In this document: piece by piece, positions 11,291-64,000 of the stretch
Layout: each line of letters starts with the position of its first letter
Position numbering within the stretch: the stretch's first letter is position 1
Assembly: GCF_044324785.1 (NCBI RefSeq)
Contig: NZ_CP172127.1
Reading direction: 5' to 3' (one strand)
Origin: Escherichia coli
GTDB lineage: Bacteria > Pseudomonadota > Gammaproteobacteria > Enterobacterales > Enterobacteriaceae
Length of the DNA: 64,000 nucleotides
Notes under the pieces: model-generated
What the model was told of the DNA's origin: nothing
The model's database searches: none
What the model saw: the letters and a program-made list of their open reading frames with translations, nothing else
Translations under genes and position numbers: made by a program

Positions 11291-11293
11291 CCG

Positions 11294-12037: not shown

Positions 12038-12136
12038 CAACCGAATGCGCCCCGCGCCAGGGCGGCACGCCGGTCAGTGAGGGTGAATCACCTGACACTG
12101 CACCGGCGTCCACCGCCCGACTTTTCAGAGGTAGTC

Positions 12137-12849: not shown

Positions 12850-12852
12850 CAC

Positions 12853-13631: not shown

Positions 13632-13645
13632 ACGGAGTAAACACC

Positions 13646-17360: not shown

Positions 17361-17780
17361 GGGCAAATCCAATGTGTGGTGGTTTTGTTATGTCACCCCA
17401 GATGCGAGTAAGAAAAAAATACGATGTTTTTAGTTTTCCATCAATCAGTCCCTGCTGTATCATTCTCACATTTTCAATGCCTGATACATTGATTCCGTTA
17501 ATTATTTTAAATAGTTGAATGTCGCGCCACTCGCGGTCAAGTCTTTTTAATTTTTTGTCTGAATATCCAAAATTGAAATAATGTGCAATAAGCCTCATAA
17601 GGTTACTTTTACCAAAGCTAAAAAATGCTAATACTGCAAAGCTACAAAGGAAAAAAACGATTAGCCCCCACACATTAGTCACATTATAGCTGACCATTAC
17701 GCTCTCCTTGAATGTTGTCTGGTAGTTCTACAAATGAATCCAGATAGCATAACTTTTATATATTGTGCAATCTCACATGC

Positions 17781-18416
17781 ATGAACACTCTCGCAAATAT
17801 TCAGGAACTCGCGCGTGCACTGCGCAACATGATCCGCACCGGTATTATCGTCGAAACCGACCTTAACGCCGGTCGCTGCCGTGTGCAGACCGGCGGCATG
17901 TGCACCGACTGGCTTCAGTGGCTGACCCATCGCGCCGGACGTTCGCGCACATGGTGGGCACCTTCCGTGGGGGAACAGGTGCTGATTCTGGCCGTGGGCG
18001 GTGAACTCGACACGGCGTTCGTTCTGCCGGGGATTTATTCCGGCGATAACCCCGCGCCGTCTGCGTCGGCGGATGCCCTGCATATCCGTTTCCCTGACGG
18101 GGCGGTGATTGAGTATGAACCTGAAACCAGTGCGCTCACGGTAAGCGGAGTTAAAACGGCCAGCGTGATGGCTTCTGATTCTGTTACTGCCACGGTGCCG
18201 GTGGTTATGGTGAAAGCATCAACCCGCATCACCCTGGACACACCGGAAGTGGTCTGCACCAACAAACTGACTACCGGCACGCTGGAAGTGCAGAAGGGCG
18301 GGACGATGCGCGGCAACATTGAACACACCGGCGGTGAACTCTCATCAAACGGTAAGGTACTGCATACCCATAAACACCCCGGCGACAGCGGCGGCACAAC
18401 CGGGAGTCCTTTATGA
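17781..18416 (+). CDS. V: Baseplate spike/assembly protein gpV (211 aa)
   Basis: ORF track starts at 17763. Trimmed to MNTLANIQELARALRN. Confidence 0.9.
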   Translation: MNTLANIQELARALRNMIRTGIIVETDLNAGRCRVQTGGMCTDWLQWLTHRAGRSRTWWAPSVGEQVLILAVGGELDTAFVLPGIYSGDNPAPSASADALHIRFPDGAVIEYEPETSALTVSGVKTASVMASDSVTATVPVVMVKASTRITLDTPEVVCTNKLTTGTLEVQKGGTMRGNIEHTGGELSSNGKVLHTHKHPGDSGGTTGSPL

Positions 18417-18760
18417 CAGCGCGTTATCTCGGAATGAATCGCAGTGATGGCCTGACTGTCACTGACCTTGAGCATATCAGCCAGAGTATCGGCGATATCC
18501 TGCGCACACCGGTCGGCTCACGGGTGATGCGTCGTGATTACGGCTCGTTGCTGGCATCAATGATTGACCAGCCGCAGACCCCGGCGCTTGAGTTGCAGAT
18601 TAAGGTCGCCTGTTACATGGCGGTGCTGAAATGGGAACCCCGCGTCACCCTGTCATCCGTCACCACTGAGCGCAGTTTTGACGGGCGAATGACGGTCACG
18701 TTAACCGGCCAGCACAACGACACCGGCCAGCCACTTTCATTAACCATCCCTGTGAGTTGA
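18413..18760 (+). CDS. W: Baseplate protein gpW (115 aa)
   Basis: Position and size. Overlaps the V stop. Confidence 0.9.
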   Translation: MTARYLGMNRSDGLTVTDLEHISQSIGDILRTPVGSRVMRRDYGSLLASMIDQPQTPALELQIKVACYMAVLKWEPRVTLSSVTTERSFDGRMTVTLTGQHNDTGQPLSLTIPVS

Positions 18761-18764
18761 AACC

Positions 18765-19673
18765 ATGCCGATTATCGACCTGAACCAGCTACCCGCACCG
18801 GATGTGGTCGAGGAGCTGGACTTTGAAAGCATTCTCGCTGAACGCAAGGCGACACTGATTTCCCTTTACCCGGAAGATCAGCAGGAGGCGGTCGCCCGTA
18901 CCCTGACACTGGAATCTGAGCCTCTCGTCAAACTGCTGGAAGAAAATGCTTATCGTGAGCTTATCTGGCGTCAGCGTGTGAATGAGGCCGCACGGGCGGT
19001 GATGCTGGCCTGTGCCGCCGGTAATGACCTTGATGTGATTGGTGCCAATTACAACACCACGCGCCTGACTATCACCCCGGCAGATGATTCGACCATTCCG
19101 CCGACACCGGCAGTGATGGAATCTGACACCGATTATCGGCTGCGTATTCAGCAGGCGTTTGAAGGTTTAAGCGTCGCCGGGTCGGTGGGTGCCTATCAGT
19201 ATCATGGCCGCAGTGCCGACGGGCGTGTCGCGGATATCTCTGTCACCAGTCCGTCTCCGGCCTGCGTCACTATCTCTGTGCTGTCACGTGAAAATAACGG
19301 CGTCGCATCCGAAGACCTGCTGGCTGTGGTGCGTAACGCCCTTAATGGCGAGGACGTCAGGCCGGTGGCCGACCGCGTGACCGTGCAGTCTGCCGCCATC
19401 GTTGAATACCAGATAAACGCCACGCTTTACCTTTACCCTGGTCCCGAAAGCGAACCCATCCGCGCTGCCGCTGTGAAAAAGCTGGAAGCGTATATCACGG
19501 CACAGCACAGGCTGGGGCGCGACATCCGTCTGTCTGCCATTTATGCCGCTTTGCATGTGGAAGGTGTGCAGCGTGTCGAACTGGCTGCACCACTGGCCGA
19601 CATCGTGCTCAACAGTACGCAGGCGTCTTTCTGTACCGAATACCGCGTCGTGACCGGAGGCTCGGATGAGTGA
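18765..19673 (+). CDS. J: Baseplate protein gpJ (302 aa)
   Basis: Position and size. Confidence 0.9.
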   Translation: MPIIDLNQLPAPDVVEELDFESILAERKATLISLYPEDQQEAVARTLTLESEPLVKLLEENAYRELIWRQRVNEAARAVMLACAAGNDLDVIGANYNTTRLTITPADDSTIPPTPAVMESDTDYRLRIQQAFEGLSVAGSVGAYQYHGRSADGRVADISVTSPSPACVTISVLSRENNGVASEDLLAVVRNALNGEDVRPVADRVTVQSAAIVEYQINATLYLYPGPESEPIRAAAVKKLEAYITAQHRLGRDIRLSAIYAALHVEGVQRVELAAPLADIVLNSTQASFCTEYRVVTGGSDE

Positions 19674-20196
19674 TTCGCGACTGCTGCCGACCGGCTCATC
19701 ACCGCTTGAGGTCGCCGCCGCAAAAGCCTGTGCGGAAATTGAAAAAACGCCGGTCAGTATTCGTGAGCTGTGGAACCCGGACACCTGTCCGGCAAATCTG
19801 CTGCCGTGGCTGGCGTGGGCGTTTTCGGTCGACAGGTGGGATGAAAAGTGGCCGGAAGCGACAAAACGCGCCGTTATCCGCGATGCGTATTTCATCCACT
19901 GTCATAAAGGCACAATAGGTGCAATCCGGCGTGTGGTGGAGCCGCTCGGCTATCTCATCAACGTGACGGAGTGGTGGGAAAACAGTGACCCGCCCGGCAC
20001 CTTCCGGCTTGATATTGGTGTACTGGAAAGCGGCATCACAGAGGCAATGTATCAGGAAATGGAACGGCTGATTGCTGATGCCAAACCTGCAAGCCGCCAC
20101 CTTATTGGCCTGAACATTACCCGGGACATTCCCGGCTACCTGTTCGCCGGTGGTGTGGCTTACGACGGCGATGTAATTACGGTTTACCCCGGATAA
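19666..20196 (+). CDS. I: Baseplate/tail fibre attachment protein gpI (176 aa)
   Basis: Position and size. Overlaps the J stop. Confidence 0.9.
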   Translation: MSDSRLLPTGSSPLEVAAAKACAEIEKTPVSIRELWNPDTCPANLLPWLAWAFSVDRWDEKWPEATKRAVIRDAYFIHCHKGTIGAIRRVVEPLGYLINVTEWWENSDPPGTFRLDIGVLESGITEAMYQEMERLIADAKPASRHLIGLNITRDIPGYLFAGGVAYDGDVITVYPG

Positions 20197-20206
20197 GTGA
20201 GGAATA

Positions 20207-22525
20207 ATGAGCACAAAATTCAGAACCGTTATCACCACTGCCGGTGCAGCAAAGCTGGCAGCGGCAACCGCACCGGGAGGGCGGAAGGTCAACATTACCA
20301 CGATGGCCGTCGGGGATGGCGGTGGTAAATTGCCTGTCCCGGATGCCGGACAGACCGGGCTTATCCACGAAGTCTGGCGACATGCGCTGAACAAAATCAG
20401 CCAGGACAAACGAAACAGTAATTATATTATCGCAGAGCTGGTTATTCCGCCGGAGGTGGGCGGTTTCTGGATGCGTGAGCTTGGCCTGTACGATGATGCG
20501 GGAACGTTAATTGCTGTGGCGAACATGGCCGAAAGTTATAAGCCAGCTCTCGCCGAAGGCTCAGGGCGTTCGCAGACCTGTCGCATGGTCATCATCGTCA
20601 GCAGTGTGGCCTCAGTGGAGCTGACCATTGACACCACAACAGTGATGGCGACGCAGGATTACGTTGATGACAAAATTGCAGAGCACGAACAGTCACGACG
20701 TCACCCGGACGCCTCGCTGACCGCCAAAGGTTTTACTCAGTTAAGCAGTGCGACCAACAGCACGTCTGAAACACTGGCCGCAACGCCGAAAGCGGTAAAG
20801 GCCGCGTATGACCTTGCTAACGGGAAATATACTGCGCAGGATGCCACCACAGCGCGAAAAGGTCTTGTCCAGCTCAGTAGTGCCACCAACAGCACGTCTG
20901 AAACGCTCGCTGCAACACCAAAAGCGGTAAAAGCAGCATATGACCTGGCTAACGGGAAATATACCGCACAGGACGCCACCACCGCGCGAAAAGGCCTTGT
21001 CCAGCTAAGTAGCGTCACCAACAGCGATTCTGAAACGCTTGCGGCAACGCCAAAGGCGGTTAAGACAGCGTATGACCTTGCTAACGGGAAATACACTGCA
21101 CAGGATGCCACCACAGCGCGAAAAGGGCTTGTCCAGCTCAGTAGCGCCACCAACAGTGATTCTGAAACCCTCGCGGCAACGCCAAAAGCAGTGAAGTCTG
21201 CCTATGACAATGCTGAAAAACGTCTTCAGAAAGATCAGAACGGTGCGGATATTCCGGGAAAGGATACCTTCACGAAAAATATCGGTGCCTGTCGTGCTTA
21301 TAGCGGCGCTTTGAGCACTGAAGCCGGAAACTGGACAACCGCTCAGTTTATTGAATGGCTGGATTCCCGTGGTGCATTTAATCATCCGTACTGGATGTGC
21401 AAAGGCTCCTGGTCATATGCAAATAACAAAATCATTACGGATACCGGATGTGGTGATATCCACCTGGCTGGTTGTGTCGTCGAGGTCATGGGAACTAAAT
21501 CTGCAATCACTATCCGAGTGACCACGCCGACAACATCAAGCGGTGGCGGTACAACCAGCGCGCAATTCACTTACATTAATCATGGGGACGGCTACTCCCC
21601 CGGCTGGCGTCGTGACTGGAATCGTCAGGGCGACGCAATGACCGGAACGATTAATCAGGATGGCGGAAGCCAGAATGCCTATATGTCTACGGCCTTATGT
21701 TCAGGCACCAGAGGCGGCAAAAAATATCTCAGAAAGTTTCGTGGTGGAGAAGGAGACACTATCTGGCATGAAACAGTACAGGGCGGGGTAGTTCGCTGGG
21801 CGACTGGTAATACTGATGCTCAGGAAGAATTATCACTCAGCTCCGCTTATGGTCTCCGTTCAAGAGGTGAGATTACATCAAGCAGTGCTAATGGTCTGCG
21901 CATTGCTTATGGCAATTATGGATTCTTTATCAGGAATGATGGCAGCAGCACTTATTTTATGTTGACTAAATCAGGTGACAGATTAGGCACTTATAATAAT
22001 TTAAGACCACTGATTATAAATGATGCCACGGGTGCTGTATCAATGGGGCATGGCCTGAGTGTTACTGGTGATATTGCCTCAAGTACCAAAGTACGTGCCG
22101 GTAGCGGGAAAAAATTCACGGTCAGCAGCAGTAATACATCCACGAAGGAAGCCGCATTCAATTTGTGGGGAAACTCAAGTCGTCCGGTGGTGGCTGAATT
22201 AGGTGATGATGCAGGCTGGCATTTTTACAGTCAGAGAAATACAGATAACAGCATCACTTTTGCTGTTAACGGGCAGGTATCACCATCTAACTATAGTAAT
22301 TTTGATTCACGCTATGTCCGGGATATCCGGCTTGGTGGTGCTGCCACATACAAACCTGCGAACAATGGCATGACATGGACACATCAGGCACCGTCCGGGT
22401 GTGTATATTCCGGCATTATTGTTCAGGATACCGGCTCAAACTCTGCCGATAACATTGGTGGCGTATATTACAGACCGGTGCAGAAATACATTAACGGGAC
22501 ATGGTATAACGTGGCACAGGTATAA
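20207..22525 (+). CDS. H: Tail fibre protein gpH (772 aa) with internal tandem repeats and divergent distal half
   Basis: Conserved N-terminus MSTKFRTVITTAGAAKLAAA, then a repeat block, then an AT-richer C-terminal half. Confidence 0.85.
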   Translation: MSTKFRTVITTAGAAKLAAATAPGGRKVNITTMAVGDGGGKLPVPDAGQTGLIHEVWRHALNKISQDKRNSNYIIAELVIPPEVGGFWMRELGLYDDAGTLIAVANMAESYKPALAEGSGRSQTCRMVIIVSSVASVELTIDTTTVMATQDYVDDKIAEHEQSRRHPDASLTAKGFTQLSSATNSTSETLAATPKAVKAAYDLANGKYTAQDATTARKGLVQLSSATNSTSETLAATPKAVKAAYDLANGKYTAQDATTARKGLVQLSSVTNSDSETLAATPKAVKTAYDLANGKYTAQDATTARKGLVQLSSATNSDSETLAATPKAVKSAYDNAEKRLQKDQNGADIPGKDTFTKNIGACRAYSGALSTEAGNWTTAQFIEWLDSRGAFNHPYWMCKGSWSYANNKIITDTGCGDIHLAGCVVEVMGTKSAITIRVTTPTTSSGGGTTSAQFTYINHGDGYSPGWRRDWNRQGDAMTGTINQDGGSQNAYMSTALCSGTRGGKKYLRKFRGGEGDTIWHETVQGGVVRWATGNTDAQEELSLSSAYGLRSRGEITSSSANGLRIAYGNYGFFIRNDGSSTYFMLTKSGDRLGTYNNLRPLIINDATGAVSMGHGLSVTGDIASSTKVRAGSGKKFTVSSSNTSTKEAAFNLWGNSSRPVVAELGDDAGWHFYSQRNTDNSITFAVNGQVSPSNYSNFDSRYVRDIRLGGAATYKPANNGMTWTHQAPSGCVYSGIIVQDTGSNSADNIGGVYYRPVQKYINGTWYNVAQV
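20726..21225 (+). repeat. About 3.8 tandem copies of a 132-bp (44-aa) unit inside H
   Basis: Peptide unit QLSSATNS(T/D)SETLAATPKAVKAAYDLANGKYTAQDATTARKGLV recurs with Q codons at 20738, 20870, 21002 and 21134. Confidence 0.9.
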
Positions 22526-22528
22526 TTT

Positions 22529-23056
22529 ATGCAGCATTTGATAAATATAACCGCGGGTAATCCAAAAACGGTTGAACAATATCAATTGACAAAGGACTTT
22601 GATGTTGTCTGGTTTTTTACAGAAGATGGTAAGAACTGGTACGAAGAACAAAAGTATTTTGCTGATGACACGATAAAAATAGCGTACGACAAGGATAATA
22701 TTATCCGCTATGTGGAAAAAGATGTGACAGCTATCAGACCAGATGGATTAAGTGTGGTTGAAGTGGCGGATATTACTGCTAACCGACGGGCGGACATTTC
22801 AGGGAACTGGATGTTTAAGGACGGCAAAGTGATTAAACGCATTTATACGGCAGAGGAATTGCAGCAGCAGGCAGAAAACCGGAAAGCCAGACTTCTTGCA
22901 GATGCTGAATCCGTGATTTTGCCACTGGAGCGCGCTGTCAGGCTGAACATGGCAACAGATGAGGAGCGTAGCCGACTGGAAGCATGGGAACGCTACAGTG
23001 TTCTGGTCAGCCGTGTGGATCCTGCAAATCCTGAATGGCCGGAAATGCCGCAATAA
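22529..23056 (+). CDS. G: Tail fibre assembly chaperone gpG (175 aa)
   Basis: Immediately downstream of H. AT-rich like the distal part of H. Confidence 0.8.
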
Positions 23057-23381
23057 GTGATATGATCTCTTGTGTTAGTTAACATAGCTATAGTACAGAG
23101 TAAGGCCTAATCTGACAGTCCGCTCTGTGCTAGGAGCGGACATTATCAACATCATGCTATGTTAATGTATAAAGTGAAGATAAATTGATATAATAAGGCC
23201 ACCATGAATATTTCAGAACCTTGTCAAAAGGTTTGCACATACTCTAGTCTTGCAATGTGTAGTTGATAGTTCCACTGAGGAGGTTCTTCGACATTCTTTA
23301 TAAAAATGTACATTTTCATCAATAATAAGAGGTAAAAGGGCTTTAATGGTTTTTTGTGGATGTTATTTCTACTCATAAATT

Positions 23382-23410
23382 TTGAGATAAGTATTGAGTT
23401 GAGATAAAAT
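23382..23410 (+). promoter_or_regulatory. Putative sigma70 promoter for the 175-aa cargo gene
   Basis: -35 TTGAGA at 23382..23387, 17-bp spacer, -10 TAAAAT at 23405..23410. AAGGA Shine-Dalgarno about 8 nt before the ATG at 23446. Confidence 0.4.
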
Positions 23411-23445
23411 TAAACTCGTTAAATTCACCTTTAAAAGGATAAAGC

Positions 23446-23973
23446 ATGGACTGGAAAGATCTTGCATCAACCGCTGTGTATACAGGTATGACTGATGAAA
23501 ATGAAAGCATATGGGAACGTGTTGATGGGGTTGACGTTGCCTTCATAGGTGCCTTTCTTACTGCGCACTTGAGCCTTGAAAAGTATATTACTGATTATCT
23601 TGGATTAAGATATCCTTCGTTAGCTTGGGGTGATGCAAAACTCACATTTTCACAAAAAATAGCTTTAATACAACATGAGCCTGCAACCCCCCCTTATGAT
23701 GAAATATATTTAAGAATAAAAGACTTTAACAGCATAAGAAATAAAATCAGTCATCAATTGAATTATCAGATTACGGATAAAGAAAAAAGTAAGTTTGTGG
23801 ACTTCTACATGAAGATTACTAAAGCCAGTAAAACTAAACCAAATATTGATATTGATAACATGGCAGATTTGTTGGATTTTTTCGTATCGATGACAAAATC
23901 CTATTTTGCTAGTGCTATTTCTTGTTATCACTATAATAAAAAGGTTGCAGGTAAAAGTAATAAAATTGATTAA
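23446..23973 (+). CDS. Hypothetical cargo protein (175 aa) with Rx4H HEPN-like motif
   Basis: Very AT-rich gene in the G-to-FI gap, where P2 carries Z/fun. Motif IRNKISH (R-x4-H) in the middle of the protein. Good Shine-Dalgarno. Confidence 0.55.
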   Translation: MDWKDLASTAVYTGMTDENESIWERVDGVDVAFIGAFLTAHLSLEKYITDYLGLRYPSLAWGDAKLTFSQKIALIQHEPATPPYDEIYLRIKDFNSIRNKISHQLNYQITDKEKSKFVDFYMKITKASKTKPNIDIDNMADLLDFFVSMTKSYFASAISCYHYNKKVAGKSNKID

Positions 23974-24271
23974 TAAAACTGGACTTAGGGATAATTAATA
24001 TATAGACGTTCTATCATTTTTAGAGTGTGCGGCAGCTCCATACATTCATGCGGATGTCAGCACCTCGCTCAAAGCAGACAGTCAGATTTGATAGCGTTTG
24101 GACTATGTAAATAGTCAGTTGGAAAATGAGTGAGTACAAATCAGGACAGGCGGGCGAATTGCCCGCCTTTTCTTTATCTGTTGTTTCATCCACTGACCAG
24201 CCAGGTCAAATAGCGTCTCATGCTCTGCCCAACAGAAAATAGTTGCACCCATTAACCACGGAGTTAAACGG

Positions 24272-25462
24272 ATGAGTGACTATCATCACGGCGTGCAGGT
24301 GCTGGAGATTAACGACGGCACCCGCGTCATTTCCACCGTATCCACGGCCATTGTCGGCATGGTCTGCACGGCCAGCGATGCGGATGCGGAAACCTTCCCC
24401 CTCAATAAACCGGTGCTGATTACCAATGTGCAGAGCGCAATTGCAAAGGCTGGTAAAAAAGGCACGCTGGCGGCATCGTTGCAGGCCATCGCCGACCAGT
24501 CAAAACCGGTCACCGTTGTCGTGCGTGTGGAAGACGGCACCGGCGACGACGAGGAAACGAAACTCGCGCAGACCGTTTCCAATATCATCGGCACCACCGA
24601 CGAAAACGGTCAGTACACCGGACTGAAAGCCCTGCTGGCGGCGGAGTCGGTAACCGGTGTTAAACCGCGTATTCTCGGCGTGCCGGGACTGGACACCAAA
24701 GAGGTGGCTGTTGCACTGGCATCAGTCTGTCAGAAGCTGCGCGCTTTCGGGTATATCAGCGCATGGGGCTGTAAAACTATTTCCGAGGTGAAAGCCTACC
24801 GCCAGAATTTCAGCCAGCGTGAGTTGATGGTCATCTGGCCGGATTTCCTCGCATGGGATACGGTCACCAGTACCACCGCCACCGCGTATGCCACCGCCCG
24901 TGCGCTGGGTCTGCGCGCTAAAATCGACCAGGAGCAGGGCTGGCATAAAACACTGTCCAACGTTGGGGTGAACGGTGTTACCGGCATCAGCGCCTCTGTA
25001 TTCTGGGATTTGCAGGAGTCCGGCACCGATGCTGACCTGCTTAATGAGTCAGGCGTCACTACGCTGATTCGCCGCGACGGTTTCCGCTTCTGGGGTAACC
25101 GTACCTGCTCTGATGATCCGCTGTTCCTCTTTGAAAACTACACCCGCACCGCGCAGGTGCTGGCCGACACGATGGCTGAGGCGCACATGTGGGCGGTGGA
25201 CAAGCCCATCACCGCAACGCTGATTCGCGACATCGTTGACGGCATCAATGCCAAATTCCGTGAGCTGAAAACAAACGGCTATATCGTGGATGCGACCTGC
25301 TGGTTCAGCGAAGAATCCAACGATGCGGAAACCCTCAAGGCCGGAAAACTGTATATCGACTACGACTATACACCGGTGCCTCCTCTCGAAAACCTGACCC
25401 TGCGCCAGCGTATTACCGATAAATACCTGGCAAATCTGGTCACCTCGGTTAACAGCAATTAA
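24272..25462 (+). CDS. FI: Tail sheath protein gpFI (396 aa)
   Basis: Size and position. Confidence 0.9.
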   Translation: MSDYHHGVQVLEINDGTRVISTVSTAIVGMVCTASDADAETFPLNKPVLITNVQSAIAKAGKKGTLAASLQAIADQSKPVTVVVRVEDGTGDDEETKLAQTVSNIIGTTDENGQYTGLKALLAAESVTGVKPRILGVPGLDTKEVAVALASVCQKLRAFGYISAWGCKTISEVKAYRQNFSQRELMVIWPDFLAWDTVTSTTATAYATARALGLRAKIDQEQGWHKTLSNVGVNGVTGISASVFWDLQESGTDADLLNESGVTTLIRRDGFRFWGNRTCSDDPLFLFENYTRTAQVLADTMAEAHMWAVDKPITATLIRDIVDGINAKFRELKTNGYIVDATCWFSEESNDAETLKAGKLYIDYDYTPVPPLENLTLRQRITDKYLANLVTSVNSN

Positions 25463-25474
25463 GGAGCCTGACCG

Positions 25475-25993
25475 ATGGCAATGCCGCGCAAACTCAAGTT
25501 AATGAACGTCTTTCTGAACGGCTACAGCTATCAGGGCGTTGCAAAGTCCGTCACGCTGCCAAAACTGACCCGTAAGCTCGAAAACTATCGCGGTGCGGGG
25601 ATGAACGGCAGCGCACCGGTAGACCTCGGCCTTGATGACGATGCGCTGTCAATGGAGTGGTCGCTCGGTGGTTTCCCGGATTCGGTTATCTGGGAGCTTT
25701 ACGCAGCAACCGGTGTGGATGCCGTGCCGATTCGTTTTGCAGGCTCTTACCAGCGCGACGATACCGGCGAAACGGTGGCCGTCGAGGTAGTCATGCGTGG
25801 ACGTCAGAAAGAAATCGACACCGGAGAGGGTAAACAGGGAGAAGACACCGAGTCGAAAATCTCCGTGGTCTGCACCTATTTCCGGCTGACGATGGACGGT
25901 AAGGAGCTGGTCGAAATCGACACCATCAACATGATTGAGAAGGTGAACGGCGTCGACCGGCTGGAGCAACACCGCCGCAATATCGGCCTGTGA
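25475..25993 (+). CDS. FII: Tail tube protein gpFII (172 aa)
   Basis: Size and position. Confidence 0.9.
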   Translation: MAMPRKLKLMNVFLNGYSYQGVAKSVTLPKLTRKLENYRGAGMNGSAPVDLGLDDDALSMEWSLGGFPDSVIWELYAATGVDAVPIRFAGSYQRDDTGETVAVEVVMRGRQKEIDTGEGKQGEDTESKISVVCTYFRLTMDGKELVEIDTINMIEKVNGVDRLEQHRRNIGL

Positions 25994-26049
25994 TTTTCAT
26001 CCGGTCAGCCAGGCTGACCGGTTAACCCTGATTCAGAAGTGAGAAAACC

Positions 26050-26325
26050 ATGAACAAAGAAAATGTGATTACCCTGGACAATCCGGTCAAGCGTGGTGAG
26101 CAGGTTATCGAACAGGTCACGCTGATGAAACCCAATGCCGGGACGCTGCGCGGTGTCAGTCTGGCTGCGGTCGCGAACTCCGAAGTCGATGCACTGATTA
26201 AAGTGCTGCCGCGCATGACGGCACCGATGCTGACCGAACAGGAGGTCGCCGCGCTGGAACTGCCTGACCTTGTGGCGCTGGCCGGTAAGGTGGTCGGTTT
26301 TTTGTCGCCGAACTCGGTGCAGTGA
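26050..26325 (+). CDS. E: Tail assembly chaperone gpE (91 aa)
   Basis: Position between FII and T. Ends ...KVVGFLSPNSVQ. Confidence 0.85.
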   Translation: MNKENVITLDNPVKRGEQVIEQVTLMKPNAGTLRGVSLAAVANSEVDALIKVLPRMTAPMLTEQEVAALELPDLVALAGKVVGFLSPNSVQ

Positions 26326-26477
26326 CGTTTCCGAAAAATCTCTCGGTCGATGACCTGATGGCGGATGTGGCAGTGATATTTCACTGGCCGCCATCAGAAC
26401 TGTATCCCATGAGCCTGACCGAACTCATCACATGGCGCGAAAAGGCGCTCCGGCGAAGCGGAAACACGAATGAGTAA
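26050..26477 (+). CDS. E': gpE+E' product of programmed -1 frameshift (about 142 aa)
   Basis: Slippery T-run GGTTTTTTG at about 26296..26304 near the end of E. The -1 frame stays open to TAA at 26475..26477, overlapping the T start. Matches the known P2 E/E' arrangement. Confidence 0.6.
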
Positions 26478-28917
26478 CAATGTAAAATTACAGGTATTGC
26501 TCAGGGCTGTTGACCAGGCATCCCGCCCGTTTAAATCCATCCGCACAGCGAGCAAATCGCTGTCGGGGGATATCCGGGAAACACAAAAATCACTGCGCGA
26601 GCTGAACGGTCACGCATCCCGTATTGAGGGATTCCGCAAGACCAGTGCACAGCTCGCCGTGACTGGTCAGGAACTGAAAAAAGCCAGACAGGAAGCCGCA
26701 GCTCTGGCTGTCCAGTTTAAAAATACTGAACGACCGACAAATGCACAGGCAAAGGCAATGGAAGCCGCGCGTAAAAATGCGTCTGAGTTACAGGTGAAAT
26801 ATAACAGCCTGAGATTGTCGGTACAGCGCCAGCGTCAGGAATTGAGTCAGGCGGGTATTAATACCCGTAATCTGGCGCATGATGAACGAGGACTGAAAAA
26901 CCGTATCAGTGAAACCACCGCACAGCTTAACCGGCAGCGTGACGCGCTGGCGCGTGTCAGTGCACAACAGGCAAAACTTAACGCAGTAAAACAGCGTTAT
27001 CAGGCCGGAAAGGAACTGGCCGGAAATATGGCCTCGGTGGGCGCTGCCGGTGTGGGGATTGCGGCGGCGGGAACGATGGCCGGAGTTAAGCTGCTGATGC
27101 CCGGTTATGAGTTTGCGCAGAAAAACTCAGAATTGCAGGCCGTGCTCGGTGTGGCAAAAGACTCCACCGAAATGGCTGCACTACGCAAGCAGGCGCGTCA
27201 GCTCGGCGACAATACCGCAGCCTCGGCAGATGATGCAGCTGGTGCGCAGATTATTATTGCGAAAGCCGGTGGGGATGTTGATGCCATTCAGGCGGCAACG
27301 CCGGTCACGCTGAATATGGCGCTGGCGAACCGTCGCACAATGGAAGAAAACGCCGCCCTGCTGATGGGGATGAAATCCGCCTTTCAGCTTTCAAACGATA
27401 AGGTCGCTCATATCGGGGATGTTCTCTCCATGACGATGAACAAAACCGCCGCTGATTTTGACGGCATGAGCGATGCGCTGACCTATACCGCACCAGTGGC
27501 AAAAAATGCCGGTGTCAGCATTGAAGAAACCGCCGCAATGGTCGGGGCGCTGCATGATGCAAAAATCACAGGCTCAATGGCGGGGACGGGAAGCCGTGCC
27601 GTGTTAAGCCGCCTGCAGGCACCGACGGGAAAAGCATGGGATGCACTCAAAGAGCTTGGTGTGAAAACCTCAGACAGCAAGGGAAACACCCGACCAGTAT
27701 TTACCATTCTGAAAGAAATGCAGGCCAGTTTTGAGAAAAACCGGCTCGGTACTGCCCAGCAGGCTGAATACATGAAAACCATTTTCGGGGAGGAGGCCAG
27801 TTCAGCCGCCGCCGTGCTGATGACTGCCGCCTCAACCGGAAAGCTGGACAAACTGACCGCTGCGTTTAAAGCCTCAGACGGAAAGACCGCAGAGCTGGTA
27901 AATATCATGCAGGACAACCTCGGCGGTGAATTTAAGGAGTTTCAGTCCGCTTATGAGGCGGTGGGGACTGACCTGTTTGACCAGCAGGAAGGCGCACTGC
28001 GTAAGCTCACGCAGACGGCCACAAAGTATGTGTTAAAACTCGACGGCTGGATCCAGAAAAACAAATCACTGGCGTCAACCATCGGCCTCATTGTCGGTGG
28101 CGCGCTGGCGCTTATTGGCATCATCGGTGCCATTGGTCTGGTAGCCTGGCCGGTTATCACCGGCATCAATGCCATCATCGCGGCAGCAGGCGCAATGGGG
28201 GCAATCTTCACGACGGTTGGCAGTGCTGTTATGACCGCCATCGGGGCGATTAGCTGGCCGGTTGTGGCCGTGGTGGCCGCAATTGTCGCCGGGGCGTTGC
28301 TTATCCGTAAATACTGGGAGCCTGTCAGCGCATTCTTTGGCGGTGTGGTTGAAGGGCTGAAAGTGGCATTTGCGCCGGTGGGGGAACTGTTCACGCCACT
28401 TAAGCCGGTGTTTGACTGGCTGGGTGAAAAGTTACAGGCCGCGTGGCAGTGGTTTAAAAACCTGATTGCCCCGGTCAAAGCCACTCAGGACACCCTGAAC
28501 AGTTGCCGTGACACGGGGGTCATGTTCGGGCAGGCACTGGCTGACGCGCTGATGCTGCCGCTTAATGTGTTCAACAAACTGCGCAGCGGTATTGACTGGG
28601 TACTGGAAAAACTCGGCGTCATCAACAAAGAGTCTGACGCACTTGACCAGACTGCCGCCAGAACTCATGCCGCCACGTATGGCACAGGTGATTATATTCC
28701 GGCGACCGGCTCTTATGCGGGGTATCAGGCTTACCAGCCGGTCACGGCACCGGCTGGCCGCTCTTATGTGGACCAGAGTAAAAACGAATATCACATCAAT
28801 CTGACGGGCGGTACTGCGCCGGGGACACAGCTCGACCGCCATTTACAGGATGCGCTCGAAAAATACGAGCGGGATAAACGTGCGCGCGCCCGTGCCAGCA
28901 TGATGCATGACGGTTAA
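26470..28917 (+). CDS. T: Tail tape measure protein gpT (815 aa)
   Basis: Size, coiled-coil N-terminus, hydrophobic glycine/alanine-rich central segment. Confidence 0.9.
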   Translation: MSNNVKLQVLLRAVDQASRPFKSIRTASKSLSGDIRETQKSLRELNGHASRIEGFRKTSAQLAVTGQELKKARQEAAALAVQFKNTERPTNAQAKAMEAARKNASELQVKYNSLRLSVQRQRQELSQAGINTRNLAHDERGLKNRISETTAQLNRQRDALARVSAQQAKLNAVKQRYQAGKELAGNMASVGAAGVGIAAAGTMAGVKLLMPGYEFAQKNSELQAVLGVAKDSTEMAALRKQARQLGDNTAASADDAAGAQIIIAKAGGDVDAIQAATPVTLNMALANRRTMEENAALLMGMKSAFQLSNDKVAHIGDVLSMTMNKTAADFDGMSDALTYTAPVAKNAGVSIEETAAMVGALHDAKITGSMAGTGSRAVLSRLQAPTGKAWDALKELGVKTSDSKGNTRPVFTILKEMQASFEKNRLGTAQQAEYMKTIFGEEASSAAAVLMTAASTGKLDKLTAAFKASDGKTAELVNIMQDNLGGEFKEFQSAYEAVGTDLFDQQEGALRKLTQTATKYVLKLDGWIQKNKSLASTIGLIVGGALALIGIIGAIGLVAWPVITGINAIIAAAGAMGAIFTTVGSAVMTAIGAISWPVVAVVAAIVAGALLIRKYWEPVSAFFGGVVEGLKVAFAPVGELFTPLKPVFDWLGEKLQAAWQWFKNLIAPVKATQDTLNSCRDTGVMFGQALADALMLPLNVFNKLRSGIDWVLEKLGVINKESDALDQTAARTHAATYGTGDYIPATGSYAGYQAYQPVTAPAGRSYVDQSKNEYHINLTGGTAPGTQLDRHLQDALEKYERDKRARARASMMHDG

Positions 28918-28931
28918 GGAGGTGACGAAAA

Positions 28932-29411
28932 ATGATGCTCGCGTTAGGTATGTTTGTTTTTATGCGCCAGACGCTGCCACACCAGACCATGCAGCGTGAA
29001 TCAGATTATCGCTGGCCGTCAAATTCCCGTATCGGTAAACGGGACGCCTACCAGTTTCTCGGTGTGGGTGAGGAAAACATCACGCTTGCCGGTGTGCTTT
29101 ATCCAGAACTGACCGGCGGCAAGCTGACGATGACCACGCTCAGGCTGATGGCAGAGGAAGGCCGGGCGTGGCCGTTGCTGGATGGCACCGGCATGATTTA
29201 CGGCATGTATGTCATCAGCAGGGTGAGTGAAACAGGGAGTATTTTCTTTGCAGACGGCACACCCCGGAAAATTGATTTTACGTTGTCGCTCACCCGCGTT
29301 GATGAATCACTGGCCGCGCTTTATGGCGATATCGGTAAACAGGCGGAATCGCTCATCGGTAAGGCTGGCAGTATGGCGACTAAATTCACGGGTATGACGG
29401 GGGCGGGATAA
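28932..29411 (+). CDS. U: Tail protein gpU (159 aa)
   Basis: Position and size. Confidence 0.9.
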   Translation: MMLALGMFVFMRQTLPHQTMQRESDYRWPSNSRIGKRDAYQFLGVGEENITLAGVLYPELTGGKLTMTTLRLMAEEGRAWPLLDGTGMIYGMYVISRVSETGSIFFADGTPRKIDFTLSLTRVDESLAALYGDIGKQAESLIGKAGSMATKFTGMTGAG

Positions 29412-30574
29412 TGCTGGACGCGCTGACATTTGATGCAGGCAGTACGCTGACGCCGGATTACATGCTGATGCTCGACAGCAGGGATATTACCGGCAATATC
29501 AGCGACCGTCTGATGAGCATGACCCTGACGGATAACCGGGGCTTTGAGGCTGACCAGCTTGATATTGAACTGAACGATGCCGACGGGCAGGTCGGGCTGC
29601 CGGTTCGTGGCGCTGTCCTGACGGTGTATATCGGCTGGAAAGGTTTTGCCCTGGTATGCAAAGGGAAATTTACCGTTGATGAGGTTGAACACCGGGGCGC
29701 ACCGGATGTGGTCACCATCCGCGCCCGGAGTGCAGATTTCCGCGGGACGCTCAATTCCCGCCGTGAAGGCTCCTGGCATGACACCACGCTCGGTGCGATT
29801 GTTGAGGCGATAGCCTCCCGTAACAGACTGGAAGCCAGTGTCGCTCCGTCACTGGCCGGAATTAAAATCCCGCACATCGACCAGTCGCAGGAGTCTGATG
29901 CGAAATTCCTGACCCGTCTTGCAGAACGCAACGGCGGTGAGGTGTCGGTAAAAATGGGAAAACTGCTGTTTCTCAAAGCGGGGCAGGGGGTGACTGCCAG
30001 CGGTAAAAAAATCCCGCAGATTACCATCACCCGCAGCGACGGTGACCGTCATCATTTTGCGATTGCTGACCGTGGCGCCTATACCGGCGTAACGGCAAAG
30101 TGGTTACACACCAAAGACCCGAAGCCACAAAAGCAGAAGGTAAAACTGAAACGCAAAAAGAAAGAGAAACACCTGCGCGCACTGGAGCACCCGAAAGCGA
30201 AACCAGTCACGCAGAAGAAAGCGCCAAAAGTACCGGAAGCACGCGAAGGTGAATACATGGCTGGTGAGGCTGACAACGTTTTTGCCCTGACCACGGTATA
30301 TGCCACGAAAGCGCAGGCCATGCGCGCCGCTCAGGCGAAGTGGGATAAGCTGCAACGGGGCGTTGCGGAGTTCTCCATCAGTCTGGCTACTGGTCGGGCA
30401 GATATTTACACGGAAACGCCGGTCAAAGTGTCAGGCTTTAAGCGCGTCATAGACGAGCAGGACTGGACAATCACTAAGGTGACACATTTTCTGAATAATA
30501 GCGGCTTCACGACGTCCTTAGAGCTTGAGGTCAGGCTTTCTGATGTGGAGTACGAAACAGAAGATGATGAGTGA
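29411..30574 (+). CDS. D: Tail protein gpD (387 aa)
   Basis: Position and size. Start overlaps the U stop. Confidence 0.9.
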   Translation: MLDALTFDAGSTLTPDYMLMLDSRDITGNISDRLMSMTLTDNRGFEADQLDIELNDADGQVGLPVRGAVLTVYIGWKGFALVCKGKFTVDEVEHRGAPDVVTIRARSADFRGTLNSRREGSWHDTTLGAIVEAIASRNRLEASVAPSLAGIKIPHIDQSQESDAKFLTRLAERNGGEVSVKMGKLLFLKAGQGVTASGKKIPQITITRSDGDRHHFAIADRGAYTGVTAKWLHTKDPKPQKQKVKLKRKKKEKHLRALEHPKAKPVTQKKAPKVPEAREGEYMAGEADNVFALTTVYATKAQAMRAAQAKWDKLQRGVAEFSISLATGRADIYTETPVKVSGFKRVIDEQDWTITKVTHFLNNSGFTTSLELEVRLSDVEYETEDDE

Positions 30575-30975: not shown

Positions 30976-31002
30976 AAAAAATAAGCCCGTGTAAGGGAGA
31001 TT
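30976..31002. other. attR: Prophage attR core (P2 27-bp att core AAAAAATAAGCCCGTGTAAGGGAGATT)
   Basis: Exact 27-mer at the junction between ogr and the host gene yegQ. Coincides with the 3' end of cyaR. The P2 core sequence is recalled from memory. Confidence 0.7.
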
Positions 31003-31062
31003 ACACAGGCTAAGGAGGTGGTTCCTGGTACAGCTAGCATTTTATGGGTTATGTTTTTCAGC
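30976..31062 (-). ncRNA. cyaR: CyaR (RyeE) Hfq-dependent small RNA, 87 nt
   Basis: Minus strand reads GCTGAAAAACATAACCCATAAAATGCTAGCTGTACCAGGAACCACCTCCTTAGCCTGTGTAATCTCCCTTACACGGGCTTATTTTTT: a CCUCCUU seed loop and a terminal hairpin with U-run. Lies between yegQ and the prophage end, as in K-12. Confidence 0.85.
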
Positions 31063-31146
31063 GAAACGGATGATAACCTTAATAAATGCAGCTGTATGTG
31101 ATCGGTTTCTAAGAATTTTCCATCCGGGAAAAATAATCGAAATTAA

Positions 31147-46587: not shown

Positions 46588-46735
46588 CGCTGAAACGGGA
46601 AAGCCCCTCCCGAGGAAGGGGCCATAAATAAGGAAAGGGTCATGATGAAGCTACTCATCATCGTGGTGCTCTTAGTGATTAGCTACCCAGCATACTAAGA
46701 CTACCAGGGCGGGGGAAACCCCGCTCTACCCTCAC
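46588..46735 (-). ncRNA. sibB: Sib antisense sRNA, antitoxin to the first ibs (boundaries approximate)
   Basis: In the Ibs/Sib family the antitoxin RNA is encoded antisense and spans the whole toxin ORF. Minus-strand hairpin GGCCCCTTCC-TCG-GGAGGGGC at about 46596..46619 is a plausible 3' terminator. Ends not determined. Confidence 0.4.
46642..46698 (+). CDS. ibsB: Ibs-family type I toxin peptide (18 aa, MMKLLIIVVLLVISYPAY)
   Basis: Short hydrophobic ORF with AAGGAAAGGG Shine-Dalgarno. Copy adjacent to mdtA. Symbol assigned by synteny and similarity to K-12 IbsB as recalled. Confidence 0.7.
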   Translation: MMKLLIIVVLLVISYPAY

Positions 46736-46914
46736 TCCTGAAAGTATGCCTTCACGATAAGATTGTCAATCTGCAGGCTTTGCAGTCTGCGATCCTGCCA
46801 GCAAATATTCTTTGCGAGACGTTACGCAATAATCACATGTGAAACTATTTTATCCGCAAGTCAGCGATAGACTGCATTCAGGGCGAAAGGAGGTAAGCCG
46901 ATGATTTCAGCGGG

Positions 46915-47062
46915 ACGCTGAAACGGGAAAGCCCCTCCCGAGGAAGGGGCCTTAAATAAGGAAAGGGTCATGATGAAGTGGATCATCATCGTGGTGCTCT
47001 TAGTCATAAGCTTCCCGGCTTACTAAGACTACCAGGGCGGGGGAACCCCCGCTCTACCCTCA
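46915..47062 (-). ncRNA. Sib antisense sRNA for the middle ibs copy (boundaries approximate)
   Basis: Same architecture as the first unit, shifted by one repeat period. Confidence 0.4.
46969..47025 (+). CDS. Ibs-family type I toxin peptide (18 aa, MMKWIIIVVLLVISFPAY), middle copy
   Basis: Second repeat unit. Same architecture as the other two copies. Confidence 0.7.
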
Positions 47063-47244
47063 CTCCTGAAAGTATGCCTTCACGATAAGATTGTCAATCT
47101 GCAGGCTTTGCAGTCTGCGATCCTGCCAGCAAATATTCTTTGCGAGTCGTTACGCAATAATCACAGAGGAAACTATTTTGTTCACGCGTTAGCGATAGAC
47201 TGCATTCAGGGCGAAAGGAGGTAAGCCGACGATTTCAGCGGGAC

Positions 47245-47392
47245 GCTGAAACGGGAAACCCTCTCCCGGAGAAGAGGGCTTTTAATAAGGAAAGGGTTAT
47301 GATGAAGCACGTCATCATACTGGTGATACTCTTAGTGATTAGCTTCCAGGCTTACTAAGAACACCAGGGGGAGGGGGAAACCTCTCCCTAAC
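47245..47392 (-). ncRNA. sibA: Sib antisense sRNA for the third ibs copy (boundaries approximate)
   Basis: Same architecture as the first unit, shifted by two repeat periods. Confidence 0.4.
47299..47358 (+). CDS. ibsA: Ibs-family type I toxin peptide (19 aa, MMKHVIILVILLVISFQAY)
   Basis: Third repeat unit adjacent to yegL. IbsA-like. Confidence 0.7.
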   Translation: MMKHVIILVILLVISFQAY

Positions 47393-47578
47393 CCTCACTC
47401 CTGAAATTATGTCACTCCGCCCTTAGTGTCAATCGACGGCTCTCCGTTCTTGCGAGGCGAATAGCAAAATTTTCTGCGCCGCCGGGCCTAATTCTGAAAG
47501 TTTCTTCGTTTGCTCTTATTTCATTGTTGCGGTCGGTATGATACCGGGCCTCAATAATTCTCTAAGAAAGGATTTCTT

Positions 47579-60939: not shown

Positions 60940-61230
60940 CTAAGCAGCATGTGGATATTGAACTTCAATACGTTGAATATGCAATCCTGCATGAGCCATC
61001 ATGGTGATCAATTTATCGATACTAAAGATCTGGATCTTACCTCTGGCAAGTTCAGATATGCGAGGTTGAGTGACCCCTAAAGCAGACGCTGCCTGAGCCT
61101 GGCTAAACCCTTGTTGTTCAATCCAGTTATTAATGATCGTAACAAGTTCGGCACGGATCCGCATATTTTCCGCTTGTTCAGGGGTGTCACTCACCGCATC
61201 CCACACACTATCAAAGGTTTCAATTTTCAT
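60940..61230 (-). CDS. XRE-family HTH antitoxin (HigA-like), 96 aa
   Basis: HTH segment FSQAQAASALGVTQPRISELARGK. Start at the internal Met with strong AGGAG Shine-Dalgarno. Directly downstream of the toxin gene. Confidence 0.7.
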   Translation of the reverse strand: MKIETFDSVWDAVSDTPEQAENMRIRAELVTIINNWIEQQGFSQAQAASALGVTQPRISELARGKIQIFSIDKLITMMAHAGLHIQRIEVQYPHAA

Positions 61231-61513
61231 TTTTCCGCTCCTGAACAAGTTCTTTATAGCGTCGTTTGGCTAAATCAATATCCGATTGACTGGTAGTCTG
61301 TGTTTTCTTTTGAAAACAATGCAATACGTAAACCGCTTCTTCAAATTTTGCGACATACATGACGCGATAGATCCCATCAGCATCGCGAGTACGAATCTCT
61401 CGCACACCAGGGCCGATAGTTGAAAAAGGTTTCCAGTCGTATGGGTTTAACCCTTGTTGGATCCTGTCGAGACGATTCTGGAAATGCGCGTAAATCGTCA
61501 AGACTGGTATCAA
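61220..61513 (-). CDS. RelE/ParE-superfamily toxin (HigB/Gp49-like), 97 aa
   Basis: Small basic protein with C-terminal region ...GIYRVMYVAKFEEAVYVLHCFQKKTQ.... Toxin-first gene order typical of higBA modules. Confidence 0.65.
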   Translation of the reverse strand: MIPVLTIYAHFQNRLDRIQQGLNPYDWKPFSTIGPGVREIRTRDADGIYRVMYVAKFEEAVYVLHCFQKKTQTTSQSDIDLAKRRYKELVQERKNEN

Positions 61514-61609: not shown

Positions 61610-63193
61610 TCACACCTCGTACTCCATCTCGCCATCCTTACGCAGCGGAATAATTTGCACCTTCTGCACGCGATGGCTTTCCACCTGCAACGTTTTAAGC
61701 AAATAATCTCCCACCTGCACTTCTTCGCCAGGTTTTGGAATGCGCTGCAAATATTCCATCAATAGCCCGGCAATGGTGTGATATTCACGTTTCTCGTCCA
61801 GCGGCAGCGGCACATATTGCACCAGATCCTCCAGCGGCATATGACCATTCGCCGTCCAGGAACCGTCCGCATTCTTCTGAATATCATGGCGGGCGTCGAT
61901 CTCTTCCACTTCGTTCGGTAAGTTACCGGCAATGGTTTCTGTGACATCACTTAATGTCACAATCCCTTCCACCGAGCCAAACTCATCCACCACAAAAGCA
62001 AAGTGTGTGCGGGCATTACGGAACTGCTCCAGGGCAGGTAACAACGGCAAGGTTTCCGGGAACACCAGCGGCTGGCGAATCAACACCCGCAGGTTGAGCG
62101 GTTCGCCGCGCAGAGACTGTTGTAGCAGGTCGATAACGTGAACAACACCGAGCAAATCTTCCGCGTCGTCACCGTCGGTAACCACCAGCCGCGTATGCTG
62201 ATTTCGCTCCAGCAACTGGCGGATTTCCTCTTCCGGCGCGTTGAGATCGATATGCTCAATATCGTGGCGCGACGTCATAATGCTGCTGACGGTACGCTGG
62301 TTAAGATTAAGGACCCGCTCAATCATCCGCCGCTCCTGCGGATTAAAGATCTGCTGGTTACCATGATCCACCAGCATGGACGCGGTTTCGGCGTCCAGTT
62401 CCGCATCTTCTTTTTGCCCGCTAAGCAGGCGCATTACCGCTTCGGTAGTCCGCTGGCGCAGCGTCTGGTTAGCGGAAAGAAAACGTCGCCGGTTAAAGAT
62501 AGCCAACTGATTGAGCGCCTCGATCATCACCGAGAAACCAATGGCAGCGTACAGGTAGCCTTTCGGAATGACGAAGCCGAAACCTTCCGCCACCAGGCTA
62601 AAGCCAATCATCAACAGGAAGCTTAAGCAGAGAATAACGATGGTCGGGTGACTGTTAACAAATTGCGTTAACGGCTTGCTGGCCATCAACATCAGGCTAA
62701 TAGCGATAACCACGGCGGCCATCATGACCAGTAAATGGTCGACCATCCCGACGGCGGTAATCACCGAGTCGAGTGAGAAGATGGCGTCCAGTACCACAAT
62801 TTGTGTCACCACCCCCCAGAACTTCGCACCTTTGCGTTGTGTGGGGTTATTGCTGTCTTTCCCCTCCAGCCGTTCGTTCAGCTCCATCGTGGCTTTGAAC
62901 AGCAGGAAGAAACCACCAAACAGCATGATTAAGTCGCGGGCGCTAAAGGTAAACGAGCGGAAGCTGAACAGCGGTTGAGTCAGGGTGACCAGCCAGGAGA
63001 TAGACGCCAGCAGTAACAGGCGCATTAACATCGCCAGCAGCAGCCCGGTAACCCGTGCGCGGTCGCGCTGCTTCGGCGGTAGTTTTTCGGCGAGGATGGC
63101 AATAAAGACCAGGTTATCAATGCCGAGGACCAGTTCGATCACAATCAGCGTGATTAACCCGGCCCAGATAGACGGATCGGCAATCCATTCCAT
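61610..63193 (-). CDS. yegH: TerC-family membrane protein with CBS/CorC domains, YegH (527 aa)
   Basis: Start trimmed to [12 protein letters not shown]. TerC-like transmembrane N-terminus and CBS pair in the C-terminal half. Confidence 0.85.
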
Positions 63194-63661
63194 AGTAAGT
63201 ACAAAACCTATTCGTTGTATGACAAATGTCACAATTCGATCATGGATAAATCGGGGCAAAAATGCAATGTTGCAGCACTATTTATCTCATATTATTTGAG
63301 GGTAATAACCTCACATTATCCCTGAATTAAAAGTGGTAATAATAAAACATTATTTAAGAAATATCGCATGTGGAGACACAGTATTAAATATTGTCAACCT
63401 AAAGAAACTCCTAAAAAACATATTGAATGACACTTAATATAATTCTTAAAAATAGCCAATTGCCGAATTGTTACCTTGCCTGCTATTCCGTTAGCTGTAA
63501 CACTTCCTCCTGCATTATTGGAGAGCCAATATTCAATTACCATAATGTCACCTTATATTCGGAAGTTAATTTCCGCAATAACCCTTTCTCATCAACGATT
63601 GTATGCAGAGAGGGTTTGAAAAATTGAGCTAAATCAGTGTATTGGTAGCTAAAAAGCCAGG

Positions 63662-63673
63662 GGCGGTAGCGTG
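63662..63673 (+). promoter_or_regulatory. ops element (GGCGGTAGCGTG) within a JUMPstart sequence upstream of wza
   Basis: Exact ops 12-mer inside CAGTGTATTGGTAGCTAAAAAGCCAGGGGCGGTAGCGTG (63635..63673). Expected RfaH-dependent antitermination site of the colanic acid operon leader. Confidence 0.7.
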
Positions 63674-63851
63674 TCTGGATGCCTGAAAGACCAGTCTGAA
63701 TTATTCTGTCAATAGCCTGCGGATGAAATCAATTTTTTTAGGACTGATGCCAGTTAAATTTTTATTCAATTAACTGCAAGGTAAATGTGCATGGCGACAT
63801 TGCTATTAATAGTGCACAGGATAATTACTCTGCCAAAGTGATAAATAAACA

Positions 63852-64000
63852 ATGATGAAATCCAAAATGAAATTGATGCCATTATTGGTGTCAGTAACCT
63901 TGATAAGCGGTTGCACAGTACTTCCGGGCAGCAATATGTCTACGATGGGTAAAGACGTCATCAAACAGCAGGACGCTGATTTCGATCTCGACAAAATGGT
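63852..64000 (+). CDS. wza: Capsular polysaccharide export lipoprotein Wza, 5' end only (truncated by window)
   Basis: MMKSKMKLMPLLVSVTLISGCTVLPGS with lipobox ISGC. The ORF runs off the window end. Confidence 0.85.
   Translation, partial: MMKSKMKLMPLLVSVTLISGCTVLPGSNMSTMGKDVIKQQDADFDLDKM

Follow-up and report, generated by a model that had tools for sequence, protein, structure and literature searches.

The 64,000-nucleotide stretch of Escherichia coli DNA analysed here (the window) carries a JUMPstart element with an ops site in front of wza; the element is real, correctly identified, far beyond chance and ordinary. It is very probably the site at which RfaH loads onto the polymerase that transcribes the colanic acid (wza–wcaM) operon. 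The 39-nt JUMPstart, CAGTGTATTGGTAGCTAAAAAGCCAGGGGCGGTAGCGTG, occupies 63635–63673 on the plus strand, and the exact ops 12-mer GGCGGTAGCGTG forms its 3′ end (63662–63673, +). The position given in a preliminary description coincides to the base with a full-length match to Rfam family RF01707 (cmscan; model positions 1–38 of 38, exactly 63635–63673). The match scores 57.3 bits, above the curated gathering score of 35, and the E-value is 2.5e-12 for 1 kb and 1.6e-10 for the whole window; the sequence thus agrees with the JUMPstart consensus (RF01707; Hobbs & Reeves 1994). Concerning its location, the element is co-oriented with wza (+) and lies in non-coding DNA 5′ of a polysaccharide export and biosynthesis cluster, as is typical of JUMPstart. 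As had been described, it stands 5′ of wza: ops begins 190 nt 5′ of the ATG of this gene (63852) and is read on the coding (non-template) strand of that gene.

The ops site has the complete 12-nt consensus, including the recognition bases C3, G4, G5, T6, A7 and G8 and the pause bases U11 and G12. Based on the exact match, the loop bases contacted by RfaH, G4–A7, correspond to 63665–63668 (+) and the predicted pause position U11 to 63672 (+). The 5′ half of the JUMPstart (63642–63660, +) contains the Rfam consensus hairpin, formed by UUGGU (63642–63646) and GCCAG (63656–63660). The hexamer GGTAGC is found as a direct repeat, with the first copy in the 5′ half (63644–63649) and the second inside ops (63665–63670).

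The 12-mer occurs only once in the window, even when one mismatch is allowed. With both strands counted, 64 kb would be expected to contain about 0.008 exact copies of a 12-mer (2 x 64000 / 4^12); the shuffle mean of 0.45 for the ops search also counts matches with one mismatch. We give practically no credence to the explanation that an ops-like 12-mer before wza is a functionless product of chance. The core 8-mer GGCGGTAG does occur four more times in the window (at 24796, 31377 and 51809 on the minus strand and at 63075 on the plus strand), and 34 intragenic ops-like sites in strain CFT073 do not bind RfaH (PMC9765446). Against chance stand the match to the whole 39-nt JUMPstart, with its low E-value for the whole window, and the position in a leader, on the sense strand, with conservation across species and genera. 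The RF01707 match, together with the conservation of the 39-mer in E. coli genomes, refutes a chance origin. The four other 8-mers were considered as ops sites and dismissed as chance occurrences, as they have no JUMPstart context; the one at 63075–63082 is inside yegH on the template strand of that gene, and the other three are at positions for which long ORFs are listed. The yegH copy belongs to an ops-like GGCGGTAGTTTT at 63075–63086 (+), antisense to the gene (codons for KLPPK). This sequence precedes the true ops by about 590 nt on the same strand, has no JUMPstart context and is probably due to chance.

Looking at E. coli as a whole, the 39-mer is found in 4579 of the 5426 complete genomes (megablast) and is identical in 4140 of them; it has one mismatch in 437 genomes and two mismatches in 2. 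The comparison with the K-12 cps leader that had been proposed as a check shows the 39-mer to be identical, base for base, to that of MG1655, so that the window has the same element as the published K-12 JUMPstart/ops (RF01707; Stout 1996 J Bacteriol 178:4273, cited in PMC9976346). K-12 and the window also share the 178-nt spacer to the wza ATG, the 658-nt length of the yegH–wza intergenic region and the score of 57.3 bits. The whole stretch from JUMPstart to the wza ATG is identical in the window, K-12 MG1655 and an O157:H7 strain. In the 445 nt upstream of JUMPstart, 14 alignment columns vary among these three sequences; 13 substitutions separate the window from K-12 there, whereas none is found within the element or downstream. 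Among the complete E. coli genomes listed, RefSeq has no feature under the match ('none'), which bears out the earlier remark that ORF-based annotation misses the site. The window is E. coli chromosomal DNA, and at least 80% of the region is present in 4818 of the 5426 complete genomes. The best complete-genome identity to the region is 99.3%, and only 98.3% to the 25 kb upstream; since no complete genome is more than 99.3% identical, the lineage of this strain is not represented among those complete genomes.

The element lies in the 658-nt, AT-rich intergenic region (63194–63851) between yegH and wza. The divergent neighbour yegH (61610–63193, −) encodes a protein of the TerC family and was assigned from the ORF list and RefSeq homologues. 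The 5′ end of wza, which encodes the outer-membrane polysaccharide export lipoprotein, is found at 63852–64000 (+), where the gene runs off the window. Its translation, MMKSKMKLMPLLVSVTLISGC, matches K-12 Wza (tblastn), and RefSeq annotates wza at the homologous positions of O157 and K-12. The gene is the first of the colanic acid operon, which in K-12 comprises 20 co-directional genes from wza to wcaM (22.7 kb), the kind of long operon that is served by RfaH. In K-12, wcaM is followed by galF and then by a second JUMPstart before rfbB. The rfaH gene is absent from the 64-kb window; E. coli carries rfaH. A type II toxin–antitoxin pair is located between asmA and yegH, with an HTH protein (XRE-like) at 60940–61248 (−) and a RelE/ParE-family toxin at 61220–61513 (−). 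This pair is annotated in the O157:H7 strain PV15-279 and is lacking in K-12 MG1655, where asmA and yegH are separated by 273 non-coding bases.

Other features of the window lie further upstream. Most of a complete P2-like prophage extends from position 1 to about 30900, with the gpA replication endonuclease, tail genes, late control D and the expected position of ogrK. It is inserted between yegR and trhP (yegQ), beside cyaR, where K-12 keeps only an ogrK remnant. Over 95% of the first 25 kb, the sequence is 99.8% identical to a prophage in E. coli EC77, and the window appears to be about 1.3 kb longer than EC77 somewhere within the prophage span. Cargo genes are found at 2352–5908, between the replication endonuclease (1–2301) and the portal gene (6325–7359, −). 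They encode a DNA cytosine methyltransferase (2352–3503, +), an O-methyltransferase-like region of two ORFs (3454–3915 and 3912–4445, both −) that EC77 carries as one CDS of 993 nt, and an ATP-binding protein (4442–5908, −); a second cargo ORF of the prophage is found at 15576–16121 (−). We take the position 2352–5908 to be that of P2 old/tin, a known hotspot for anti-phage systems, and the cargo is therefore a candidate defence cassette. The CyaR sRNA gene (30979–31064, −; RF00112, 100.7 bits) adjoins the right end of the prophage. Also, three tandem SIB antitoxin RNAs are encoded on the minus strand at 46627–46769, 46955–47097 and 47284–47432 (RF00113, 138–150 bits), each presumably opposite an ibs toxin ORF. 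K-12 has two (sibA and sibB) at the SIB locus upstream of mdtA.

Concerning the region upstream of JUMPstart (63194–63634, +), its AT-rich character is evident from the GC profile and it contains several blocks conserved across genera. The GC content is 27–39% in the yegH–wza intergenic DNA, compared with 50–59% in yegH, which is consistent with the H-NS binding reported for the wza region (PMC9765446). The first block, TAAGAAATATCGCA (63355–63368), resembles an RcsAB box, and its counterpart in the Atlantibacter alignment is the near-consensus AGGATATTCCTA. The RcsAB box consensus is said to be TaAGaatatTCctA, as reportedly given by Wehland & Bernhard in 2000. Further blocks in the cross-genus alignment are TTGTCAAC...TCCTAAAA (63391–63416), TTAATATAATTCTTAAAAA (63434–63452), which includes TATAAT at 63438–63443 and is a candidate promoter, and CCTTGCCTG...TTAGCTGTAACA (63474–63502). 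The last of these coincides largely with a candidate promoter-like arrangement, TTGCCT-17 nt-AACACT (63476–63504). The labels RcsAB box and promoter follow from this consensus, and these blocks are best read as candidate elements. The TATAAT block and the TTGCCT–AACACT block are both upstream of ops, so ops would be transcribed under either candidate start.

A consensus promoter scan of 63190–64000 returned one weak site (63519–63546), compared with 3.9 sites in shuffles. This site was rejected as a promoter, being weak, in a region with fewer sites than the shuffles, and not conserved in other genera. In the same scan, there were no promoter-like sites between ops and wza; together with the literature, this would place ops in the leader. 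In many E. coli genomes, RefSeq (PGAP) calls a 49-aa 'hypothetical protein' at the position homologous to 63394–63543 (−). This ORF, which shares sequence with the conserved promoter-like blocks of the AT-rich region in front of wza, has probably been called spuriously within the promoter region of that gene.

The bases on which RfaH recruitment depends are known from mutational work on ops. Recruitment is abolished by the substitutions G4C, G5A, A7T and G8C and cut about three-fold by C3G and T6A, and G12C removes the pause at U11 (PMC5995543). Direct reading of the window's ops finds the wild-type base at every position needed for recruitment or pausing in that study. On the non-template strand, the ops DNA folds into a small hairpin with a C3:G8 pair and a G4–A7 loop; the flipped-out T6 enters a pocket in the N-terminal domain of RfaH, with G5 packed next to it, and the refolded C-terminal domain of RfaH recruits the 30S subunit to leaders that have no Shine-Dalgarno sequence (PMC5995543). 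The DNA fold of ops and its flanks in the window is no more stable than shuffles (z = -0.50), as is expected for a structure stabilised by protein.

Concerning the wza locus itself, the most direct data come from CFT073, where an identical ops 12-mer is found at −190 of wza on the non-template strand (PMC9765446, Data set S2). An RfaH ChIP signal is present there in a delta-hns delta-stpA background and is lost in delta-rfaH, and sigma70 peaks are reported upstream of wza (PMC9765446). In wild-type CFT073 grown in rich medium, wza is bound by H-NS and untranscribed, RNA polymerase is below background and there is no RfaH signal; wza–wcaM is accordingly named a 'cryptic' locus of the RfaH regulon, for which a signal to initiate transcription is required (PMC9765446). 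The operon is also described as being under 'JUMPStart-RfaH antitermination', with citation of Stout 1996 and Hobbs & Reeves 1994 (PMC9976346), and PMC3673037 places cps under JUMPstart–RfaH antitermination, for which RfaH is 'presumably' needed. RfaH-dependent control of the colanic acid operon, as suggested in the preliminary description, is thus supported by its agreement with published data from other strains. Transcription through ops and RfaH dependence of the distal genes would extend to the present strain by analogy with the E. coli strains studied in those papers. Navasa 2014 (FEBS Lett 588:922) reportedly also belongs to this literature on other strains.

Taken together, the following course of events may be proposed. 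RcsAB would relieve the silencing of the AT-rich, H-NS-silenced promoter upstream, and transcription would start. RNA polymerase would then enter the wza leader and pause at U11 of ops (63672), where the exposed non-template (+) ops strand would fold into the small hairpin and present the loop bases G5 and T6 to the RfaH N-terminal domain for recognition. RfaH would replace NusG on the polymerase for the remainder of the roughly 23-kb operon and would counter pausing, Rho-dependent polarity and the elongation blocks imposed by H-NS. Its refolded C-terminal domain could also bring a ribosome to wza, which itself has no Shine-Dalgarno sequence. Since the locus is silent unless Rcs is activated or H-NS is lost (PMC9765446), RfaH would act after initiation driven by RcsAB, and its control would be conditional.

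In the 20 kb of the K-12 operon that were scanned (positions 9600–29590 of the K-12 stretch, L124), sites resembling intrinsic terminators are not enriched (22, compared with 24.4 in shuffles), and no particular terminator stands out as a target for RfaH. For this reason, 'antitermination' here probably means the suppression of pausing, Rho polarity and H-NS blocks and not read-through of intrinsic terminators. Two internal non-coding features were found by Rfam in the K-12 operon, outside the window: an 'algC RNA' motif just 5′ of cpsG (L124 14985–15034, −) and a REP/naRNA4 in the 276-nt gap between wcaK and wzxC (L124 10525–10595, +). Both would have to be traversed by an RfaH-modified polymerase.

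It is improbable, in our judgement, that the JUMPstart before wza is a conserved but functionally minor relic, with expression set by RcsAB initiation and with little added distally by RfaH. LPS-core mutants are mucoid, which would suggest that colanic acid is made when RfaH-dependent functions are impaired and would favour such a relic. The lack of excess intrinsic terminators within the K-12 operon, the word 'presumably' in PMC3673037 and the appearance of an RfaH signal at wza in CFT073 only when both H-NS and StpA are absent (PMC9765446) point in the same direction. On the other side, RfaH is physically recruited to this ops when the locus is transcribed, the 39-mer is invariant in the 4140 genomes mentioned above, and the spacing between JUMPstart and wza is kept across genera although the upstream DNA is only about 47% identical.

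For the comparison across genera, one genome per bacterial species was scanned for the pattern GGTAGC-N5-6-GCCAGGGGCGGTAGCGTG, which returned at least 120 stretches, nearly all from Enterobacterales. The loci were chosen by an exact 29–30-nt JUMPstart pattern, so that the sample covers only leaders with the element, conservation of the element itself is circular in it and only the flanks, the spacing and the leader were used. A Wza homologue begins within 2.5 kb after JUMPstart in 37 of the at least 120 stretches listed (tblastn with K-12 Wza). In 18 loci from several genera among the matches listed, ops ends 170–187 nt before the start codon of wza, mostly 176–178 nt. This colanic-type spacing is found in Escherichia coli, E. 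whittamii, several Citrobacter, Salmonella enterica subsp. arizonae and diarizonae, Atlantibacter, Kluyvera and other Enterobacteriaceae. The mean pairwise identity of the cross-genus loci is 47.5% in the 250 nt upstream, 66.4% in the leader between ops and ATG and 57.5% at the third codon positions of wza; invariant columns make up 46 of 194 in the leader (24%) and 18 of 150 at the third codon positions (12%). That the JUMPstart–wza arrangement is kept next to upstream DNA of about 47% identity, together with the invariance of the 39-mer, argues for selection.

The exact JUMPstart was also found on contigs labelled Arthrobacter, Bacillus, Chryseobacterium, Flavobacterium, Erysipelotrichia, Peptococcaceae, Lachnospiraceae and Tenericutes (L015, L024, L047, L094, L101, L108, L115 and L117). 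These contigs are mostly short, with the Chryseobacterium-labelled one reaching 799 kb; those labelled as Firmicutes or Tenericutes come from MAGs. Most likely, enterobacterial DNA has contaminated these public assemblies or was mis-binned there.

The leader between ops and the wza start codon is 178 nt long (63674–63851, +), and no other Rfam family matches it at E<=1. The leader alignments contain two blocks that are invariant across genera, TTTTTTTAGGACTGATGCCAGTTAAAT (about 63733–63759, +) and GCACAGGATAATTACTCTGCCAAAGTGATAAATAAACA (about 63814–63851, +). Read directly, the last 20 nt of the leader (CCAAAGTGATAAATAAACA) contain no tetramer resembling a Shine-Dalgarno sequence. These blocks, the fixed spacing and the lack of a Shine-Dalgarno sequence tentatively suggest a cis element in the wza leader that has not been described, although we regard this as rather unlikely. 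Such an element might couple an RfaH-loaded polymerase to ribosome recruitment at wza; alternatively, it might gate the translation of wza through pairing of UUGGUA in JUMPstart with UGCCAA.

RNA folding bears on a further explanation, in which JUMPstart is mainly an RNA element independent of RfaH and controls translation initiation or mRNA stability through the Rfam hairpin or the UUGGUA/UGCCAA pairing. All five pairs of the Rfam hairpin in the 5′ half (U-G, U-A, G-C, G-C and U-G) can form here, and no non-standard pair is flagged. RNAalifold on 17 cross-genus leaders predicts 16 pairs, among them a helix between UUGGUA (63642–63647) and UGCCAA (63831–63836, 16 nt before the wza ATG) that is kept in 15–17 of the 17 leaders; the UGCCAA block is almost invariant across genera and precedes a gene without a Shine-Dalgarno sequence. 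The folds themselves speak against this explanation: none of the predicted pairs has a compensatory change, the covariation term of +0.19 kcal/mol gives no support, and the RNA fold of the 39-mer does not exceed that of shuffles in stability (z = -0.03). A stretch of 200 nt may also easily contain a 6-nt complement by chance, and the ops half of the element is already explained by a mechanism at the DNA level (PMC5995543). In the cross-genus sample, the hairpin bases are fixed by the search pattern and hence uninformative for covariation; both sides of the UUGGUA/UGCCAA helix are invariant, so this helix is neither supported nor refuted. An RNA element could also act in addition to RfaH loading instead of replacing it, and as an alternative we hold it to be highly improbable, a little more so than the relic.

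Concerning novelty, the JUMPstart/ops before wza is already known: publications on the element go back to the 1990s, it has an Rfam family, and RfaH recruitment in CFT073 was reported in 2022. The only mildly new point is the combination of invariant leader blocks and a fixed ops–wza spacing in a leader that has no Shine-Dalgarno sequence. If these blocks are functional, they would offer a handle on RfaH-coupled translation start on such a leader. The site carries little weight as a discovery, and its practical value lies in the annotation of a position that RefSeq leaves blank; marking JUMPstart/ops there would flag wza–wcaM as an operon served by RfaH and explain the long conserved leader.

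Compared with known systems, the wza ops of CFT073 is the same GGCGGTAGCGTG, on the same strand and at the same distance from wza as in the window; the published RfaH occupancy data come from delta-hns delta-stpA cells of CFT073 (PMC9765446). The O-antigen (rfb) JUMPstart between galF and rfbB is also a member of RF01707 (60 bits in K-12); it shares the 3′ half GCCAGGGGCGGTAGCGTG with the wza element and likewise precedes a long polysaccharide operon. The 5′ halves differ, with a CAGTGCTCTGGTAGCTGTTAAG-type sequence at rfb against CAGTGTATTGGTAGCTAAAAAG at wza. Also, the rfb site is constitutively transcribed and bound by RfaH in wild-type cells, whereas at wza Rcs activation is required (PMC9765446). 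The ops sites of hly, kps, waa (rfaQ) and tra share the core GGCGGTAG, their place in a leader on the non-template strand and the mechanism of RfaH recruitment (PMC5995543, PMC9765446); compared over ops, those of hly and kps carry the variant 3′ ends GGCGGTAGCATG and GGCGGTAGCATA, respectively (PMC9765446). In the group 1 capsule and amylovoran/stewartan-type clusters (wzi-wza..., ams/cps), JUMPstart is also located 5′ of an export and synthesis operon that contains Wza, but the leader is longer or another gene comes first. The distance from ops to the start of Wza is about 400, 1300 or 1950 nt in Pantoea, Erwinia, Mixta, Brenneria and Tatumella, whereas in the window wza is the first gene and begins 178 nt after it.
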